A stretch of 32,000 nt of DNA from an uncultured Muribaculaceae bacterium (GCA_965231035.1 OZ246409.1:421101-453100), one strand, 5' to 3'. Positions 5,716 to 14,817 are shown, numbered from the stretch's first letter. Notes: generated by a model not told the origin, from the letters alone. A program made the numbers and translations.

Positions 5716-6366
5716 ATGGAAATACAAGAAATAAGAACTTTTGGCCGCAGGCACGGTAAAAAAATATCCAAACGCCAGCAATGGCTGGTTGATAATATTT
5801 TGCCGGCCTTATCGCCAAAAAATATCAAAAACACCGGTAAAATTATTCTTGAAATTGGATTTGGCGCGGGCGAACACATTCGGGAACTGGCCTTGCAAAA
5901 TCCTGATAAAATAATCCTGGGGGCTGAACCATTTATAAACGGTGTTGCATCATTACTGTCATCTGTCACTGTCGAATCGGATAACCAGATAAAAACAGAG
6001 TTCAAAAATATTTTTATTTATCCGGATGATGTTCGAAAAATTATAAAAAAAGATTCCTCAGAATTTGTTCCAATTTTGTTTTCAGAAATTTATATATTGC
6101 ACCCCGACCCCTGGCCAAAGGCAAGACACGAAAAAAGAAGATTATTAAATTCAGACTTTTTGAATTTGTTATCCGAACGGTTGGAAAAAGATGGTCGAAT
6201 TATAATTGGAACCGATCACTGGGAATACTATGAGTGGATTATTGAACAACTGAAAAAAACCAGATTAAAAATAGCAACCACCGATTTAAGTATAATTGAT
6301 ACTCGTTACAAACAAAAAAACAAGGCAAAAACAACAAATCCCAAGTATCTTGTTTTATCTATATAA
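5716..6366 (+). CDS. trmB: tRNA (guanine-N7)-methyltransferase
   Basis: LEIGFGAGEH SAM-binding motif, HPDPWPK motif, and length typical of TrmB. Confidence 0.85.
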   Translation: MEIQEIRTFGRRHGKKISKRQQWLVDNILPALSPKNIKNTGKIILEIGFGAGEHIRELALQNPDKIILGAEPFINGVASLLSSVTVESDNQIKTEFKNIFIYPDDVRKIIKKDSSEFVPILFSEIYILHPDPWPKARHEKRRLLNSDFLNLLSERLEKDGRIIIGTDHWEYYEWIIEQLKKTRLKIATTDLSIIDTRYKQKNKAKTTNPKYLVLSI

Positions 6367-6405: not shown

Positions 6406-7065
6406 TTAACTGTCTATAAAAAACTTTACTTTTTTGGAAATTTCTGACTGCATTTTTTGAATTAAACGCCAAACTTGTTCTATCTTTTCATAATCGTTAT
6501 TTAACGAGAAATGTAACTCTGTATTTAAATCTTTATCCAAACCATCCAAGAACCCATAAATACGTCCAACAAAGTCATAATTTTTTTTCAAGTCATTATG
6601 AAAATCTAATAATAAAACATCTGCCCTTATTTTTTTTATTTCCGAAAAAACATTAACCCAATCCAATGAGTTTATTTCATCAACATCCAAACAAATTGAT
6701 AATGTTTTATTAAAAAATAAATCATCTCTGATTGGTAATAATTCAGATACAAAAGAAGATAATAAAGAGTACGGTACAAAAATTTGTGCCCCACCCGCCC
6801 CTTTCTTAAAAACAGAATTTATTTCTGTTGATAACTTTGAAATATCAAAATTTTTATCCAGATAAAAACGTGCCATTATTCTTGTTAAATTTTTTTCCAA
6901 CCATGGCCATAAAATCTGGACTGATTCTTGTGGTACAGATATAACAGGTATATTTTCCTTTACCACTACTTCGGCCATTCGTACAAGTTCAGAAATATCT
7001 CTATTTGGTTTACATTCTAGAACCAAGATATCTTTTAATTCTTCAAAAACATTTTCAGTATTCAT
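6406..7065 (-). CDS. Hypothetical protein with weak DeoC/class I aldolase TIM-barrel resemblance, Schiff-base Lys position not conserved
   Basis: KKGAGGAQIFVPYSLLSS compares with DERA AYGADEVDVVFPYRALMAG. IRADVLLLDFH compares with AGADFIKTSTG, with Leu at the Lys position. The DERA sequence is recalled from memory. The start could be 7065 or 7095. Confidence 0.4.
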   Translation of the reverse strand: MNTENVFEELKDILVLECKPNRDISELVRMAEVVVKENIPVISVPQESVQILWPWLEKNLTRIMARFYLDKNFDISKLSTEINSVFKKGAGGAQIFVPYSLLSSFVSELLPIRDDLFFNKTLSICLDVDEINSLDWVNVFSEIKKIRADVLLLDFHNDLKKNYDFVGRIYGFLDGLDKDLNTELHFSLNNDYEKIEQVWRLIQKMQSEISKKVKFFIDS

Positions 7066-7072
7066 GCTTTTC

Positions 7073-7085
7073 AGTTTATCACAAA
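7073..7085 (-). promoter_or_regulatory. Extended -10 promoter (TTTGTGATAAACT) 7 nt upstream of the ATG at 7065
   Basis: The minus strand reads tttgTGATAAACT-gaaaagc-ATG. It belongs to the recurring TTTGTGATAnAnT motif in this window. Confidence 0.4.
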
Positions 7086-7087
7086 TA

Positions 7088-7096
7088 TGGTACAAT
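7088..7096 (+). promoter_or_regulatory. Extended -10 promoter (TGGTACAAT) 9 nt upstream of the ATG at 7106
   Basis: TGgTACAAT-taaaaccaa-ATG with no SD. It sits back-to-back with the minus-strand element. Confidence 0.4.
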
Positions 7097-7105
7097 TAAA
7101 ACCAA

Positions 7106-8020
7106 ATGAATAAAAGAATTGACCGTTTTCTTTTGGGGCTGCTTTGGCTTTTGGCTATGACGCTTGGTGCCAATTTTTGGTTCACGACCCGTTTTGGTTT
7201 TAATATTTTTCTTGTATCTCATTGGAAATATCTTGGGGAAATCCAGGCTGCTGGTTCGGAAATAGAACCTTTGTTTTATATTTCCTTGGTAGTTTTTGCA
7301 TTTTTAACGGTTTTTGGACTTTTTATGCTTGTTCGAACCAAACTTAGAAAAATAACATTTGATACTGGAAAAGAATCATCATTGGAAAAAACTGTTGTTG
7401 TTGAAACTCCTGTAATAAAAATGTCAGAGATTGTGATACCAGAAAAAAAAGAAAATGTTTTATCACCTGTTCGTCCACCCAGATTGTCTATTCCTGTGAC
7501 GCCAAATTATTCCGTACCAAAGAATCAAAATAATTTAAGACCGGACGTACCTGTTAATAATATTCCGGAAATACCGACCCAGGTAAAAAACAAGACTGTT
7601 TCAGGTATCGAAACATCCGAAATTGAAGAGATATTCAAACAATCTGGTTATCTGGTTAAAAAACCTTCCAGAATTGCTGGTTTTCTTCCAGATTTATTTG
7701 CAATTGGTGCAGACGAAGTATTATGGGTTGGCGGTATTGGTTCAAATCCAAATGAAATGTCTAATGCTTTGGAAAAATTAAAGGCTATTTTCAAAGACAC
7801 ATTGGAAGATATAGACATTAACGTAAAATCGTTTATAATATCTGATGACAATGCTTCTACTGATGATTTTGCATCAATTGAGAAGTTTGCCTCAGTTCAA
7901 GAACTGCGTGATTATATGGGCAAAAATAAAAGTAGAGAAATTCAAAATTCAGAACAAGAAGATTTTGAAGCTTATTCTGAATACATAGATACGGTTGCAG
8001 ATTATTTTAACAAGTTATAA
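7106..8020 (+). CDS. Membrane-anchored protein with Pro-rich linker and C-terminal restriction-endonuclease-fold-like module
   Basis: Two N-terminal TM helices and the linker PVRPPRLSIPVTPNYSVP. The C-terminus EIEEIFKQSGYLVKK..FLPDLFAIGADEVLWVGG..ALEKLKAIFKD..INVKSFII has an alpha-beta3-alpha-beta pattern with PD...E-x-L where PD-(D/E)xK would sit. Confidence 0.45.
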   Translation: MNKRIDRFLLGLLWLLAMTLGANFWFTTRFGFNIFLVSHWKYLGEIQAAGSEIEPLFYISLVVFAFLTVFGLFMLVRTKLRKITFDTGKESSLEKTVVVETPVIKMSEIVIPEKKENVLSPVRPPRLSIPVTPNYSVPKNQNNLRPDVPVNNIPEIPTQVKNKTVSGIETSEIEEIFKQSGYLVKKPSRIAGFLPDLFAIGADEVLWVGGIGSNPNEMSNALEKLKAIFKDTLEDIDINVKSFIISDDNASTDDFASIEKFASVQELRDYMGKNKSREIQNSEQEDFEAYSEYIDTVADYFNKL

Positions 8021-8039
8021 ACAACGGGAAAATAAAACT

Positions 8040-8546
8040 ATGCAGCTTAAGAAATCATCCGCAGAAAAAAGATTAGAAGATTTGTTTATGGACGATCTGC
8101 CAGTAGTGGAATTCGCCGTCCAGGAATCTTGTGTAGTTCCAGATTGGTTTGCCAAATACAGATCTTTGCGCCGTGATTTTATGAAATCTTTAACTGATTC
8201 TATTGAAGACCTTGCTTTTCTTAATTTATCCCAAGATGAATTTATGGGACTAATTATGGGACGCTCTTTGCCCCCTAACCTTTCTTTAAGATTTCGTATT
8301 CCATTGGTATGGGGTGGAAAATTGGAAATAGAAAATATGTTTATGTGCAGAACTTTTCCACACAGTCATAACATGGACAGATTTATAATCGAACAAGCTG
8401 GCAGTCCCACTATATGGCTCCCTAATCCTGTCAGAAAAGTTTATGTACCAGCACATACTACTGGTGGTGGCGATGGCGGTAATGCAACCGAAGACAGATT
8501 AAGCCAACTGGCTTCACAACTAGCTTCTTCAAGGGGTATGGAATAA
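8040..8546 (+). CDS. Small protein with a degenerate HNH/beta-beta-alpha-Me-like motif (candidate toxin component)
   Basis: RFRIPLVWGGKLEIENMFMCRTFPHSHN resembles HxxPxxxGGxxxxxNxxxxCxxCH, but has Phe at the first His position. The start at 8040 follows GGGAAA. It is tightly coupled to the next ORF. Confidence 0.35.
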   Translation: MQLKKSSAEKRLEDLFMDDLPVVEFAVQESCVVPDWFAKYRSLRRDFMKSLTDSIEDLAFLNLSQDEFMGLIMGRSLPPNLSLRFRIPLVWGGKLEIENMFMCRTFPHSHNMDRFIIEQAGSPTIWLPNPVRKVYVPAHTTGGGDGGNATEDRLSQLASQLASSRGME

Positions 8547-8548
8547 AA

Positions 8549-8983
8549 ATGGATATAATGGAATTTTTATCTTATATGAAATCTAATGGTGCAACATTTG
8601 TGCCTGCTGCTAGTACAGCAAATATATCAATGGCCAGCAGTAATTTACAAAATATTCGTGCGGCCACACTGCCTCCTTTTATGATAGATTTTTATAAAAA
8701 TGTTGGCGGTATGATTTTAGGAGACGCATACATATTTGGACCAGATCAAATAACTGTGACCAAAAAATTTCCTGTGCCATCAATACTAGAAGTAAATCGT
8801 GAAATAATTGATTTACCACAGGTTCGTGGAAAAACCGTTTTTGGCAGAAATGATTTATTCTGGTTTGCGTTTGATGCTTTTGGAATATGTTTTATGTTGG
8901 ATAATATTTCATTAAAACCAGTACGTAAATATGACGATCCTTGGCGCGCCATGACTGATTGCTTAATAGTAGGAAAGATGTGA
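8549..8983 (+). CDS. SMI1/KNR4 (SUKH)-like protein (candidate immunity component)
   Basis: NIRAATLPPFMIDFYKNVGGMILGD plus C-terminal GRNDLFWFAFDAFGICFMLD fit the SUKH pattern (LPxxhxxFhxxxNGG ... GxD ... D..G). It starts 2 nt after the upstream stop. Confidence 0.45.
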   Translation: MDIMEFLSYMKSNGATFVPAASTANISMASSNLQNIRAATLPPFMIDFYKNVGGMILGDAYIFGPDQITVTKKFPVPSILEVNREIIDLPQVRGKTVFGRNDLFWFAFDAFGICFMLDNISLKPVRKYDDPWRAMTDCLIVGKM

Positions 8984-9195
8984 AAAAAATATCTGTTTCT
9001 TTATCAGGTCATCAAACCAGCATCACACTGGAAGATGAATTTTTTGACGCTTTGAAAAAAATAGCCGACACGGATAAAAAATCTGTTGCATCTATAATCA
9101 ATTCAATAGATGAAAAAAGAACGCCTGAATCTAACCTTTCTTCCGAGATAAGGATATATATATTGAACAGATTGTTGAAAACAGCAAAATTATAA
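8980..9195 (+). CDS. Ribbon-helix-helix (RHH_4-type) DNA-binding protein
   Basis: KKISVSLSGHQTSITLEDEFFDALKKIADTDKKSVASIINSIDEKR...NLSSEIRIYILNRLL matches the alphaproteobacterial RHH_4 pattern (GHxTSxxLEdxFW..L..iA...). A GTG start at 8980 overlaps the upstream stop (GTGA) and is preceded by AGGAAAG. Confidence 0.7.
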   Translation: MKKISVSLSGHQTSITLEDEFFDALKKIADTDKKSVASIINSIDEKRTPESNLSSEIRIYILNRLLKTAKL

Positions 9196-11122
9196 TCATC
9201 CACATATCACGTCCCAATTCTCGATAAATAGTTATATGATGACCACCAATAATTCCGTCCAAACTGCCCGCTTCGCCAACCTGCAAAGATGATTCAATTG
9301 TTCCATCCGATGAAATAAAAGCACTGATACCAGAATAATTTGCACGAACAATCGGTAACCCAGATTCAATAGCATATCTGCGAACCATATCCAGATGCTG
9401 ATAAGTACCAGGTGTTTTATCAAACCAATTATCATTAGTAATATTTATAATAGCCTGGGGTTGATGTTCTGAATTTTTTGGAATCAAAGAATCTGAAAAT
9501 ATTATTTCATAGCAAATTGCCGGTGCAAAATAAAAATCATTATCTTTTAATTTCAGCTTTATAATTTCTGGACCATTTCCAGGTGTCAGTAACCCGGGTG
9601 TTGGAATTAAATTCCCAAACGGACGGTATTCCCCGAATGGTACCAAATGTGATTTACTGTATATTTTTTGTATATTCCCTTCTTTATTAACGACCAGCAA
9701 AGAATTATAAAGTTTCCCATAATCATAAGTAGTTGCACCCATAATTGTTTGGGTTTTTAATTTTTTCACAATGTCCAGATTCTCATTTATAACTAAATAC
9801 GGATATGTTGTTTCTGGAAATATCATCAAGTCAACTGGCTCATCATCTTTGCTTGCCAAGTACCCTAAATTTTTTATATTTTCTTCGGCATTTGCAATTG
9901 CCTGTGCACGGGAATAAGTTGCTTTTTCTTCAGCTGACTTTCCAGGTTGAATTATTCTTATTATTGGTGATGAATCATAATTTTTATTATTGGATTTTTT
10001 TATGTTTTGATACCCAAAAAATATTCCAATAATTAATAATGTTAAAAATACAAAAAATGGAAAAAATATTATCTTTGATTTTCTGTTTTTTATAATCTCG
10101 ACTGTGCTGGATATTAAACCAATAATTATAAATGTTAAACCAAAGGCACCCCACAAAGACATAGAGTTAGATAGTATCGGAAACGGCATTGTTATGTTCG
10201 AAATTGGGTTCCATGGGAATCCTGTAAAAAGCCATTCACGAAGCCACAAAACAAACACCCAAATTGATGCGAATAAAAACGTTCTATGTGCACTGTTCTG
10301 CCGCATACAGTGAATTATTATGAATGGAATCGCAAAAATAAATCCGCCAACAATTCCAATTCCAATTAATGCAGGAACTGTCCAAATTGCAAACTTTGCC
10401 ATCAGTTCCGGAACAACATAAATTGAATTAACAACCCACCAAAATTGACCAACCGCATAGGCGGCTGTGAATGGTAAAATTCTGAACATTGATTTCCAAA
10501 ATTTATGTTTATGATTATTATCTAAATCATAAATTGTAATACCGTATGCCAGACCTATTCCAAGTACAGTTCCCCACCACAGATTAAACGGTGCAAAACC
10601 AATGGAAGATAACAATCCAAGAAATATCAAAACAAAAGATCTTAAAACTATTTTGTTTGAAATTTTTCCAATAATTCTATTAAAAATATTTTCTTTTTTA
10701 TCATCTGAATAAGGATTTTTAATACCAAGTTTTTTTAATAACTTTATTTCCAAATTTTCCATTTTTTTTGCATCCCGATTATTCAAATGATCATACCCCA
10801 TCAGATGAAGTACACCATGAACAAGCATGTGTGTTGTATGTTCTTCAAATGTTTTGTTTTGCTCTTTTGCCTCTCTTGCGACAGTATCAAAGGATATAAA
10901 AATATCACCCAACAATTCGTTATCCCCTGTTTCAAAAGAAAGAACATTTGTGGGCTTGTCAATTTTTCTGTATTTTTTATTCAGCACTTTGATTTCTTTA
11001 TCATTTGTCAGAATAATAGAAACTTCAGCATTTTTAGTTTTGTTCACAGATTCAACAATTCGCATAAAATCAATCTTGTGCGATTTCCATCTGGTATCGT
11101 TATAATTTACAAAAGTTTTCAT
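9131..11122 (-). CDS. ybeY/lnt: In-frame fusion of the YbeY endoribonuclease domain (about residues 1-140) with apolipoprotein N-acyltransferase Lnt (about residues 158-663)
   Basis: The N-terminus has HGVLHLMGYDH (YbeY zinc motif). The rest is a multi-TM Lnt with the nitrilase-type triad context FPETTYP, KSHLVPFGEY and PAICYEIIF. It is a single 663-codon ORF with no stop or ATG at the junction. Confidence 0.85.
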   Translation of the reverse strand: MKTFVNYNDTRWKSHKIDFMRIVESVNKTKNAEVSIILTNDKEIKVLNKKYRKIDKPTNVLSFETGDNELLGDIFISFDTVAREAKEQNKTFEEHTTHMLVHGVLHLMGYDHLNNRDAKKMENLEIKLLKKLGIKNPYSDDKKENIFNRIIGKISNKIVLRSFVLIFLGLLSSIGFAPFNLWWGTVLGIGLAYGITIYDLDNNHKHKFWKSMFRILPFTAAYAVGQFWWVVNSIYVVPELMAKFAIWTVPALIGIGIVGGFIFAIPFIIIHCMRQNSAHRTFLFASIWVFVLWLREWLFTGFPWNPISNITMPFPILSNSMSLWGAFGLTFIIIGLISSTVEIIKNRKSKIIFFPFFVFLTLLIIGIFFGYQNIKKSNNKNYDSSPIIRIIQPGKSAEEKATYSRAQAIANAEENIKNLGYLASKDDEPVDLMIFPETTYPYLVINENLDIVKKLKTQTIMGATTYDYGKLYNSLLVVNKEGNIQKIYSKSHLVPFGEYRPFGNLIPTPGLLTPGNGPEIIKLKLKDNDFYFAPAICYEIIFSDSLIPKNSEHQPQAIINITNDNWFDKTPGTYQHLDMVRRYAIESGLPIVRANYSGISAFISSDGTIESSLQVGEAGSLDGIIGGHHITIYRELGRDMWMIIILLFSTICSIYISLSRKKG

Positions 11123-12883: not shown

Positions 12884-13600
12884 CTAGAACAAAATATTTA
12901 AATTTGCACCGAATTGATATTCACTTGATTCAAATTCATAATCAACATGTGCAACATATTCTGTGCGTCCATATTTTCTGACCAGTTTAAAGTTTATCCA
13001 TTCTTGATCAAACACTGGATTTGTTGATTTACGCAAATCAAATCCTAAACCTGTCATCCAACTAGGACTTATTTTTACATATGCCTCGGGCATCAAATCA
13101 ATATAAGCCATACCTGAAACTTCGTCAAAAATCCAAGTTGTCTTTATGGTTCCTGCCAAAGTAAACGAAGACCATTGGCGTCCAAAACGCATTCCGGCAT
13201 AATATGCAGTATTTGCAAAATCAGGTGTGCGAACACGATCACTGCCACCAAAGTTAACCCCAAAAAGTGCGTCTGAAATTGCCTCGGATTCGGAATTACC
13301 AGAAATACGATAAATACCACCAACACCAATGTGAGAAAATCCGTCATCGGTTCCATTAAAATCCTGTTGATATTTAATGTTTGCATTTAAAGCCAATCTG
13401 CCGTTTACACCATACGAAAACATTTGCGATACACGTATAACACTGTCATTCAAATACAGTCCAGATCTAGATAAAAAATCACCAGAGCTTTCCAAAAATA
13501 TTGGATTTTCAGTATCAAAATCTGACTCTGCGTTAGCCGCAAAAATCGGCAATCCGCACAAAACCGTAAATGATAAAATTTTTAATATTTTATTTTTCAT
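12884..13600 (-). CDS. Small outer-membrane beta-barrel protein
   Basis: Signal peptide MKNKILKILSFTVLCGLPIFAANA, alternating beta-strand pattern, and the C-terminal ...GANLNILF aromatic terminus typical of OMPs. Confidence 0.7.
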   Translation of the reverse strand: MKNKILKILSFTVLCGLPIFAANAESDFDTENPIFLESSGDFLSRSGLYLNDSVIRVSQMFSYGVNGRLALNANIKYQQDFNGTDDGFSHIGVGGIYRISGNSESEAISDALFGVNFGGSDRVRTPDFANTAYYAGMRFGRQWSSFTLAGTIKTTWIFDEVSGMAYIDLMPEAYVKISPSWMTGLGFDLRKSTNPVFDQEWINFKLVRKYGRTEYVAHVDYEFESSEYQFGANLNILF

Positions 13601-13620: not shown

Positions 13621-14817
13621 TTAGAAATACAATATTCCTTGGACACCAAATGAAGTTTCCAAAGTATTATTCAATTTTGCAGTTCCTATTTTTGTAAATT
13701 CTGTTACACCTGCACTTGGTTCATACCACCAGAATCCCAGTTTTTTGCCATCTGCATTATCATATACAGATGTTTTAGCATATAGATTCAAAGAGAAATT
13801 GTTATATGGTTGCCATCCAACTACCCCTTTGATAGATGCTTGATTATGCCAATCATAATTTCCGAATAATCCTTCAACATTTAATGTCCAATCTTTATCC
13901 AAAACGCTGAAAACGCCAAATCCACCTTCGTAGTAATTTACATTATTGTCGCCAGTTTTATAAGCAATCAATAATGCTGCATTATCATTTGATATTCCAT
14001 TTCCATAAGAATTCATATCAAAGTTTACAAACCATCCACGTGCCAAACCATATATTGTAGAAGAACCAATTTTGTAACCAGCCTTTGCATCAACTGCAAA
14101 AAAGTCTGCTAAATCACTTTGTCTTTGATAATATCCAGAAATATTTGCAATCCATTCGTTTGTATCAACAAAACGCCACTGCAAACCCAGACCGTACATA
14201 TTTAAACCAGAATCTGTCATTTCGTCATCAGACGCAGTTGACCAATCCATAGAATATTTTGAATAATCATATCTGACCATACCCATCAAAGCTAAATTAT
14301 CTGTAACACCATAGCTGATATCTTCTTTTACATACATCTGACCTGCATTCCATGTTGCCTTGGTATCACTTAATGCTGGTCCTGTTGTTTGATCAATTTT
14401 GAAATCATAAGAACTGTTTGTATAACCCAAATCAGTTACAGAACCAAATTTACCAGCCAATGGTTGAAAGAAAGGATGTGCCAAATAATATTTGCGCTTG
14501 GCATCTGCACGTGCTGATTCTGTACGTGAAGTTCTGTCGTATTGATTTGTTGATTCAGAATTATAAGCCTTGTACAAAGCACTTCTTTTAGAAGGTTCTG
14601 TATAATAAATATTATTATTGTCTTTTACTGCATAAGTTTTTGATGTGCTGCGTGTTTCATACTTTTCATAATTTACCCTTGTTTGAACACGTGCGCCTGG
14701 TGCACTGCTGAGATCTGCAGTGGAAGAACCATCAACAGCTGCGTTCGCAGAACTAAAAACACTGGCCATTCCGAAAACTGCAATTGCCCAAACAAAAAGT
14801 GACATCTGTTTTTTCAT
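13621..14817 (-). CDS. Outer-membrane porin-like beta-barrel protein
   Basis: Signal peptide ...ASVFSSANA. The protein is Gly/Tyr/Asn-rich with an amphipathic strand pattern and ends in GVQGILYF. AAGGAG RBS. Confidence 0.7.
   Translation of the reverse strand: MKKQMSLFVWAIAVFGMASVFSSANAAVDGSSTADLSSAPGARVQTRVNYEKYETRSTSKTYAVKDNNNIYYTEPSKRSALYKAYNSESTNQYDRTSRTESARADAKRKYYLAHPFFQPLAGKFGSVTDLGYTNSSYDFKIDQTTGPALSDTKATWNAGQMYVKEDISYGVTDNLALMGMVRYDYSKYSMDWSTASDDEMTDSGLNMYGLGLQWRFVDTNEWIANISGYYQRQSDLADFFAVDAKAGYKIGSSTIYGLARGWFVNFDMNSYGNGISNDNAALLIAYKTGDNNVNYYEGGFGVFSVLDKDWTLNVEGLFGNYDWHNQASIKGVVGWQPYNNFSLNLYAKTSVYDNADGKKLGFWWYEPSAGVTEFTKIGTAKLNNTLETSFGVQGILYF

Follow-up and report, generated by a model that had tools for sequence, protein, structure and literature searches.

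A core operon of the alphaproteobacterial order Rs-D84 that encodes a degenerate HNH protein and a SUKH protein

Toxin-immunity pairs are usually regarded as fast-evolving, dispensable weapons. We analysed a four-gene operon at positions 7106-9195 of a stretch of DNA of 32,000 nucleotides (nt) listed under an uncultured Muribaculaceae bacterium (GCA_965231035.1 OZ246409.1:421101-453100), the whole of which is called the window in this text. Here, an HNH-like protein is followed directly by a SUKH-like protein, and the initial annotation of the sequence had taken the operon for a conflict module. The four + strand genes, named P1 to P4, encode proteins of 304 amino acids (aa; P1, 7106-8020), 168 aa (P2, 8040-8546), 144 aa (P3, 8549-8983), and 71 aa (P4, 8980-9195). 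P1 and P2 are separated by 19 nt and P2 and P3 by 2 nt, and P3 and P4 overlap by 4 nt (GTGA). This tight packing, described in the initial annotation, was reproduced in our analysis and by the independent public gene calls on the source contig, which list the identical four genes.

Conservation of the operon in Rs-D84

Rs-D84 is an order in the GTDB whose members have genomes of ~0.75-1.0 Mb with ~800-950 genes, lack nucleotide biosynthesis, and probably depend on partner cells (PMC12306168). We found 490 close homologues of P2, with a constant length of ~168 aa, and relatives in 103 species-representative genomes, all from uncultured alphaproteobacteria of animal or termite guts and many of them named Candidatus (Ca.) Enterousia. 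The gene order unk229 (a 229-aa gene described below), P1, P2, P3, P4 was identical in the 80 Rs-D84 loci that we retained, and most of these are flanked by gltX and trmB upstream and by ybeY-lnt, mucR, and rarA downstream. With the source contig included, 81 of 81 loci have four intact open reading frames (ORFs) separated by gaps with medians of -1, 14, and 2 nt, and each locus examined has one copy of the operon. Core genes in conserved synteny, an outcome named beforehand as speaking against a conflict module, are thus what we observed.

We then estimated the ratio of nonsynonymous to synonymous substitution rates (dN/dS) by the Nei-Gojobori method from 40-53 species pairs per gene (20-23 for mucR and rarA). 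The rough values obtained were 0.16 for P1, 0.11 for P2, 0.11 for P3, and 0.125 for P4, compared with 0.075 for gltX, 0.097 for trmB, and 0.14 for ybeY-lnt. The G+C content of the operon is 35.1%, that of the window 35.9%. There are no paralogues of the operon genes within the window, the operon proteins have no match in the defence catalogue PADLOC, and no relatives of P2 were found in the viral contigs of IMG/VR or the plasmids of PLSDB. The equal G+C content, the fixed synteny, and the lack of phage or plasmid relatives led us to reject a recent horizontal acquisition. Hence, the region 7106-9195 is a single, vertically inherited core operon of the reduced-genome order Rs-D84, and it has neither the patchiness nor the mobility nor the catalogue membership of a mobile toxin-immunity, toxin-antitoxin, or defence cassette.

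P2 and P3 and their toxin-immunity ancestry

The initial annotation had likened P2, with its motif RIPLVWGGKLEIENMFMCRTFPHSHN, to HNH (beta-beta-alpha-Me) nucleases and had noted a Phe in place of the general-base His; both statements proved correct. P2 has no sequence match in Pfam, NCBIfam, PADLOC, or the PDB, the Pfam HNH model matches no member of the family, and sequence and profile searches against the PDB with P2, P3, and the P2 family gave only chance-level matches. A search with the P2 profile against 1.8 billion representative proteins retrieved only 80 clusters, the named ones all from alphaproteobacterial metagenome-assembled genomes. The P2-family profile aligns to residues 253-387 of YhhZ from Escherichia coli, which belong to its HNH domain (hhalign probability 98.5%, E = 3.5e-15), and the P2-family hidden Markov model (HMM) scores, in HMMER, 64 bits with YhhZ and 71-72 bits with HNH endonucleases encoded on plasmids. 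In the AlphaFold2 (AF2) model of P2 (predicted local distance difference test, pLDDT, 88) the beta-beta-alpha core comprises residues 81-117 (8280..8390, +), with strands at 81-85 and 100-104 and a helix at 105-117. Foldseek searches of the PDB and BFVD with this model gave top lists of mostly HNH nucleases, with no match significant alone, and we regard them as supporting evidence only. By profile homology, P2 belongs to the HNH / His-Me finger superfamily.

YhhZ, a member of His-Me finger group 32 (PMC5714182), has an N-terminal Hcp domain and a C-terminal HNH domain. The alignment with YhhZ covers the whole P2 domain, with its helical N-terminal part, the beta-beta-alpha core, which contains P-x3-GG-x5-N, and the subsequent strand P.P.G.(V/I)Y. 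The two genes are also alike in what follows them. In E. coli K-12, yhhZ ('putative endonuclease') overlaps yrhA by 4 nt, and a similarly tightly coupled gene for a YrhA-type SUKH protein follows P2 in the window after a 2-nt gap. On the other hand, YhhZ carries the Hcp delivery domain of a type VI secretion effector, has an intact His-His dyad, and has no P1 or ribbon-helix-helix (RHH) partner, whereas P2 is free-standing, has Arg-Phe in place of the dyad, and possesses an extra tail. Moreover, the two genes are accessory in E. coli, with yrhA disrupted by IS1 in K-12, while P2 and P3 are core and syntenic across the order.

Free-standing HNH proteins were found on plasmids. A tblastn search with a distant member of the P2 family (P0409) matched 458 enterobacterial plasmids, of which 433 are conjugative. 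The matched genes are annotated as 'HNH endonuclease', and in each listed example the next gene is annotated as 'YrhA family protein'. The IncHI2A plasmid CP109752.1 encodes a free-standing HNH protein of 191 aa and then a YrhA-family protein (L113:3845-4936), and the pair is located between a lytic transglycosylase gene and a gene with a TraG N-terminal domain; a second example of such a pair is at L112:3377-4930. Like P2, the plasmid proteins are small, lack a delivery domain, and have a YrhA-family gene next to them, and the 191-aa protein scores 72.5 bits with the P2-family HMM. Unlike P2, they have the catalytic His (QVHHKIPLDDGG) and are without the P2 tail, and neither P1 nor RHH genes adjoin theirs. 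The initial annotation could not place the combination of genes in a described system, partly on the ground that the HNH-like protein is free-standing and without a delivery domain; HNH and YrhA pairs of this kind do exist on enterobacterial conjugative plasmids.

For P3, Foldseek searches with the AF2 model (pLDDT 94.2) returned SUKH proteins as the three best PDB matches, 3d5p (SMI1/KNR4 family, E = 2.2e-4), 2icg, and 2pag, each with a probability of 1.0 and with TM-scores of 0.59-0.75. According to its model, P3 has the SUKH fold. P3 also matches the NCBIfam YrhA family (NF038335) with 29.8 bits (E = 4.6e-7), under the 55-bit cutoff, and Pfam SMI1_KNR4 weakly matches 5 of 67 P3 orthologues. 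Distant orthologues in the loci L082 and L088 exceed the YrhA cutoff with 71.8 and 66.6 bits, P3 is connected to them by profile at E = 1e-5 to 1e-14, and the family-wide P3 HMM matches plasmid YrhA proteins at 27-34 bits. The fold search and the YrhA family match both bear out the earlier SUKH assignment, and P3 belongs, with its SUKH fold, to the lineage of the YrhA immunity proteins. The P2 and P3 genes are adjacent in every distant locus as well as in 81 of 81 Rs-D84 loci, and the L083/L084 lineage has P2 and P3 alone, without the other operon genes. Because of the profile matches to YhhZ, to the plasmid HNH proteins, and to YrhA proteins, P2 and P3 are recognizable by homology as true descendants of a YhhZ/YrhA-type pair of an HNH toxin and a SUKH immunity protein.

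We next considered whether P2 has kept the catalytic residues of this ancestor. The second His of the HNH dyad is the general base. Homology to YhhZ fixes the register of the dyad as YhhZ NVHHKLSLDDGG, plasmid QVHHKIPLDDGG, VirD4-linked relatives (described below) NIHLRVPFEYGG, and window SLRFRIPLVWGG, or over a longer segment as YhhZ NVHHKLSLDDGGTNDFENLVLIENEPYH, plasmid HNH QVHHKIPLDDGGTNAIDNLVLIQNSPYH, VirD4-linked relatives NIHLRVPFEYGGTNNFSNLCLIQTHPYH, and window P2 SLRFRIPLVWGGKLEIENMFMCRTFPHS. In this register, Arg84-Phe85 of P2 (8289..8294, +) occupy the positions of the metal ligand and the general base, respectively. At the general-base position, 34 of 34 aligned sequences of the P2 family have F, L, I, V, M, or R; the dyad's first His is retained in the VirD4-linked subfamily and replaced by an invariant Arg in Rs-D84. 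The VirD4-linked P2 proteins have three conserved His (reference positions 84, 109, and 113) in a pattern similar to that of colicin DNases, H...N...H-x3-H, and P2 of the window has Arg84, Ser109, and Asp113 at these positions. His108 and His110 of P2 vary among relatives, Asn99 is conserved family-wide, and there is no His, Asp, or Glu in the core that is conserved throughout the family-wide alignment. The positions with at least 90% conservation (Phe47, Gly74, Asn80, Pro88, Gly92, Gly93, Asn99, Pro107, Gln119, Pro128, and Pro130) are structural only, and to them is added a C-terminal tail motif, GG-x4-D. This family-specific tail (GG-x4-DR ... GR; 8466..8543, +), with a family-wide conservation of at least 90% for Gly146, Gly147, and Asp152, is modelled by AF2 with low confidence. 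It is absent from YhhZ and from the plasmid HNH proteins; the latter terminate directly behind the P.P.G.(V/I)Y strand that they have in common with P2. With the general-base His lost in the whole family, and the first His lost as well in Rs-D84, a role as a nuclease toxin is very unlikely for P2.

Polymorphic toxin systems with SUKH immunity proteins were reportedly described by Zhang, Iyer and Aravind in 2011. The operon resembles them in that a nuclease-fold toxin domain precedes a SUKH immunity gene, and the N-terminal partner of the toxin domain varies, being Hcp in YhhZ, a 150-aa extension in Kosakonia, and the MWDWS motif with a proline/glutamine-rich (P/Q-rich) region in VirD4-linked proteins. 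However, polymorphic toxin systems are variable, patchy, often multi-copy, and catalytically active, whereas the window operon has an invariant gene content, is core, evolves under purifying selection, and is catalytically degenerate. Inactivated His-Me fingers have been reused for the binding of DNA or substrates in Smad MH1 and in the nuclease-like domain of ENPP/autotaxin (PMC5714182). These domains provide a precedent for P2, as an HNH fold that survives as a binding module without its catalytic His, but they are eukaryotic, unrelated in sequence and context, and have no immunity-protein partner.

The membrane protein P1, the RHH protein P4, and VirD4-linked relatives

P1 has 131 homologues. 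A hydropathy scan identified hydrophobic segments at residues 8-26 and 58-76, which would form a transmembrane hairpin (7127..7333, +) with a conserved loop of ~30 aa, FGFNIF..HW.YL..QA, between them. Because basic residues flank the hydrophobic segments, before the first and after the second, both termini should be cytoplasmic, and P1 is predicted to be an inner-membrane hairpin protein. Of its long, disordered linker, 14% is proline, so that the two transmembrane helices and the Pro-rich linker of the initial annotation stand. The linker contains the motif RPPRL (7472..7486, +), in which Arg123 and Pro124 are invariant and Leu127 is nearly so. This motif and the hairpin are the best conserved parts of the P1 alignment; the hairpin is also kept in distant P1-like proteins, and those from VirD4-linked loci have RPPA(L/V) as the matching motif. 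P1 ends with an acidic/aromatic tail, EQEDFEAYSEYIDTVADYFNKL (7952..8017, +), conserved as ENFDAYSEYIDTV in the P1 alignment, L085, and L087, for which a docking role could be imagined. We rejected the idea that the tail is a remnant of an acidic VirD4 C-terminus, since a comparison of the P1 profile with VirD4 proteins gave no match (E > 1).

The C-terminal alpha/beta domain of P1 (7616..7885, +) appears to be a shortened NERD-like domain of the PD-(D/E)xK superfamily, linked to it by transitive profile homology. P1 of the window has no match of its own in Pfam, NCBIfam, or PADLOC, and a profile of the domain gave only chance-level matches in the PDB. Its profile connects it to orthologues in L087 (E = 1.4e-36), L085, L090, and L088, and among 14 members of the wider P1 family, Pfam NERD matches the C-terminal domain of 8, with a best E of 1.3e-5, whereas REase_MTES_1575, a second PD-(D/E)xK family, matches that of 2; the orthologue in L087 matches NERD with E = 0.016. 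The Rs-D84 copies lack ~25 aa of the NERD-like domain, including the segment around strand 3. At least 90% conserved in the alignment of the wider family are two Gly, a Trp, Ser-Pro, an Asn, and an Asp, and this alignment contains no conserved D...(D/E)xK triad. The initial annotation had read PD...DEVL as the signature of a restriction endonuclease-like fold. As a catalytic motif we rejected it because its residues are not conserved, with only Glu204 nearly invariant, while the PD-(D/E)xK fold itself is plausible by descent, given the NERD matches of the relatives. The domain is probably derived from NERD and devoid of catalytic residues.

P4 matches the Pfam family RHH_4 (PF13467) with 72.7 bits at a cutoff of 25 (E = 2.6e-20), its residues 2-64 covering positions 2-66 of the 67 in the model, in agreement with its earlier designation as an RHH_4 DNA binder. 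The P4 gene directly follows P3 in 81 of 81 Rs-D84 loci and also in L085 and L087. The convergent overlap of the RHH_4 gene with its downstream neighbour, 65 nt with ybeY-lnt in the window (9131-9195), recurs with 44-56 nt in L085 and L087, despite a different partner gene (AsmA in L085).

Among distant relatives, the genes occur in two forms. Form A, consisting of P1, P2, P3, and RHH_4, is found in the window, in all Rs-D84, and in L085/L086 and L087. Form B consists of one or two copies of a P1-like gene, a gene for a VirD4/TraG-type coupling protein, a P2-like gene, and a SUKH gene, and it is present in all five loci obtained by exact look-ups and in all those of 19 metagenome loci that have upstream sequence. 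The form B loci come from uncultured alphaproteobacteria (L082, L088-L094, L096-L099, and L101-L109; for example L088:1145-7719). Their P1-like proteins have transmembrane segments and a NERD domain, the VirD4-type ATPase has an acidic tail, the P2-like proteins have an N-terminal MWDWS motif and a long P/Q-rich region, and the SUKH proteins are of the YrhA type. These four families alone are common to the form B loci. Walker A (APPGTGKT) and Walker B (LFVLDE) of VirD4 are intact, and its nearest plasmid relatives, with 33-36% identity, are encoded within canonical virB8-B11/D4 clusters. No virB or other genes of a type IV secretion system (T4SS) lie beside the form B loci, whose surroundings are housekeeping genes, and a VirD4 gene is absent from the window and from the ~6-kb flanks examined around the operon in each of the 80 Rs-D84 loci. 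We also considered whether the small neighbours of canonical virD4 genes on plasmids are P2-like or P3-like, and HMM comparison showed that they are not. Going by its gene families, the window operon is a VirD4-less, RHH-bearing form of the P1-like/VirD4/P2-like/SUKH module. The bacteria-killing T4SS of Xanthomonas employs effectors and immunity proteins (X-Tfe/X-Tfi) with active toxin domains and a C-terminal XVIPCD, encoded near a full virB cluster. The distant relatives are similar to X-Tfe/X-Tfi in having toxin-derived and immunity-type genes directly 3' of virD4; they differ in that the toxin domain is dead and no virB genes are adjacent, and the window form has no virD4.

The neighbours of the operon had been given as trmB and lnt. 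Upstream, the gene that adjoins P1 is an unannotated - strand gene for a 229-aa protein (6406-7095; 219 aa in the public gene call), and trmB lies beyond it; downstream, lnt is indeed present, in the form of a ybeY-lnt fusion. The 229-aa protein has no match in Pfam, NCBIfam, or PADLOC. Its gene, with a dN/dS of 0.17, is the divergent neighbour of P1 in L087 as well as in 81 of 81 Rs-D84 loci, and L085 has it at a distance of 3 kb; it may be a member of the operon or merely syntenic. The fusion (9131-11122, -) encodes 663 aa with the Pfam domains YbeY (21-132), LNT_N (169-334), and CN_hydrolase (402-613), whereby the endoribonuclease YbeY and the apolipoprotein N-acyltransferase Lnt share one ORF. 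Joining a cytosolic RNase to a polytopic membrane enzyme is unusual, and L087 has the same fusion (596 aa). The remaining genes of the window are housekeeping genes, encoding FtsK, PAP2, an S41 (tail-specific) protease, SecDF, MutL, LptF/G, and ribonucleotide reductase. Two adjoining - strand ORFs at 12884-13600 (238 aa) and 13621-14817 (398 aa) have no Pfam match at E <= 0.001; the 238-aa product has a signal-peptide-like N-terminus and an aromatic last residue, as in outer-membrane beta-barrel proteins. A 66-nt overlap (5716-5781) between gltX (-, with a TTG start listed at 5781) and trmB (+) is probably an artefact of mechanical ORF listing, and conserved GltX sequence starts further downstream than this TTG. 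A consensus scan identified a candidate sigma-70-type promoter (7068..7096, +; TTTTCA, 17 nt, TACAAT, with TG before the -10 element) that ends 9 nt ahead of the P1 start codon, but sites of this kind are as frequent in the region as chance would predict. Promoter and terminator scans of the region performed no better than chance overall, and the scan upstream of P1 showed no convincing operator palindrome.

Present function of the operon

What does such an operon do? The conflict-module reading of the initial annotation applies to the ancestry of the HNH toxin/SUKH pair. As a description of the present operon it fails because the genes are core and syntenic with housekeeping-like dN/dS values, are kept in reduced genomes, have lost the catalytic His, and have no PADLOC, phage, or plasmid match. 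Very probably, the operon now has a new use, and its present function we infer as follows. It seems rather probable to us that the operon represents an exapted, catalytically dead toxin-immunity pair that is anchored by a membrane protein, is under the control of the RHH protein, and serves a lineage-specific housekeeping role. P3 would still bind P2 as an immunity protein binds its toxin, and P1 would hold the P2-P3 pair at the inner membrane via its linker motif or tail. The dead HNH and NERD folds would serve to bind nucleic acid or protein and would not be enzymes. From a site near 7068-7105, P4 may repress its own operon. Lineage-specific housekeeping, rather than conflict, would be the business of the module.

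Several points weigh against this reading. The link of P2 and P3 to YhhZ and YrhA runs via more divergent family members in family-wide profiles, and profiles made from Rs-D84 sequences only gave no significant match to YhhZ, the K-12 YrhA fragment, or plasmid YrhA. The NERD assignment of P1 in the window is one of transitive homology only, its own sequence matching nothing. The dS of the pairs used is near 1, which makes the dN/dS values rough. In addition, His-Me finger proteins can employ other residues as a base, so P2 could have residual activity.

Could the operon be a live toxin-immunity or addiction module after all, with P2 as a toxic nuclease neutralized by P3 and an autoregulating P4, and fixed because its loss is lethal? 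True homology connects P2 and P3 with an HNH toxin/SUKH immunity pair, free-standing HNH and YrhA pairs reside on conjugative plasmids, and the tight coupling of genes that ends in an RHH gene is reminiscent of type II toxin-antitoxin operons. Nevertheless, we give this explanation little credence. The general-base His is gone family-wide, and both His of the dyad are gone in P2 of the window. The genes are universal and syntenic, have housekeeping-like dN/dS values, and show none of the patchiness or diversification typical of conflict genes; they have neither paralogues nor a compositional anomaly in the window, match nothing in PADLOC, phages, or plasmids, and are kept in genomes of about 0.75-1 Mb. 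Least probable in our view is a membrane-bound DNA-processing machine in which P1 or P2 still cuts or nicks nucleic acid at the inner membrane in a non-canonical way, for instance for nucleotide salvage, with VirD4 as the DNA motor in relatives. It would account for the meeting of two nuclease-derived folds with an RHH DNA binder and, in relatives, an ATPase of the DNA-translocase type, for the three conserved His of the VirD4-linked P2 proteins with their colicin-DNase-like pattern, and for a role in organisms without nucleotide biosynthesis. Yet part of the NERD segment is deleted in P1 of the window, the His positions of P2 are taken by Arg84, Ser109, and Asp113, and neither the core of P1 nor that of P2 has an acidic or His residue that is conserved family-wide.

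The VirD4-linked relatives raise a further explanation, which we consider unlikely. P1, P2, and P3 could be accessory subunits (receptor, adaptor, or chaperone) for a VirD4 encoded elsewhere and feed DNA or effectors to a T4SS, in a manner analogous, not homologous, to DotM, DotN, and IcmSW on DotL of Legionella; in a partner-dependent bacterium this could serve contact with the partner cell. The order of P1-like, VirD4, P2-like, and SUKH genes is fixed in all form B loci with upstream sequence, only these four families are common to the loci, and the ATPase motifs of VirD4 are intact, with its nearest plasmid relatives in virB8-B11/D4 clusters. The conserved tail gained by the P2 family and lacking in its toxin relatives, the MWDWS motif and P/Q-rich region of the VirD4-linked P2 proteins, and the probable dependence of Rs-D84 on partner cells are also consistent with such a complex. 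On the other side, neither the window nor the 6 kb around the operon in any of the 80 Rs-D84 loci contains a VirD4 gene, no further T4SS gene adjoins any VirD4-linked locus, and our literature search found no mention of a T4SS in Rs-D84. It is a tentative thought that the P1-like/VirD4/P2-like/SUKH set might be an undescribed type IV coupling-protein machine of uncultured gut alphaproteobacteria, with a dead HNH protein and a former immunity protein as permanent adaptor or receptor subunits and a NERD-like anchor. As part of the same doubtful proposal, the Rs-D84 operon might be a minimal form of that machine, used for the exchange of nucleic acid or protein with partner cells.

The exapted pair in a lineage-specific housekeeping role is the reading we favour. 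The pairing of an HNH toxin with a SUKH immunity protein is of an already known kind. Our literature search found no description of the catalytically dead, tail-bearing P2 family, of its fixed association with a NERD-like membrane protein, with an RHH protein or, in relatives, with an orphan VirD4, or of the operon as core in a reduced-genome order; searches of the literature on PF13467, on NERD with coupling proteins, and on SUKH with VirD4 found nothing relevant.

A pair with YhhZ/YrhA ancestry appears to have lost catalysis, gained a tail, and entered a fixed association with a membrane protein and an RHH protein, with gene order and reading frames kept in all sampled species of the order, and the operon thereby offers a clean, testable example of a conflict module that would have become a core function. 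Annotation of P2-type proteins as active HNH endonucleases or toxins should be avoided. In relatives, the constant association with an orphan VirD4 points to type IV coupling proteins being used in a way not yet described. Finally, the operon draws attention to four uncharacterised families that are probably important to the biology of Rs-D84/Enterousia, a common uncultured gut lineage.

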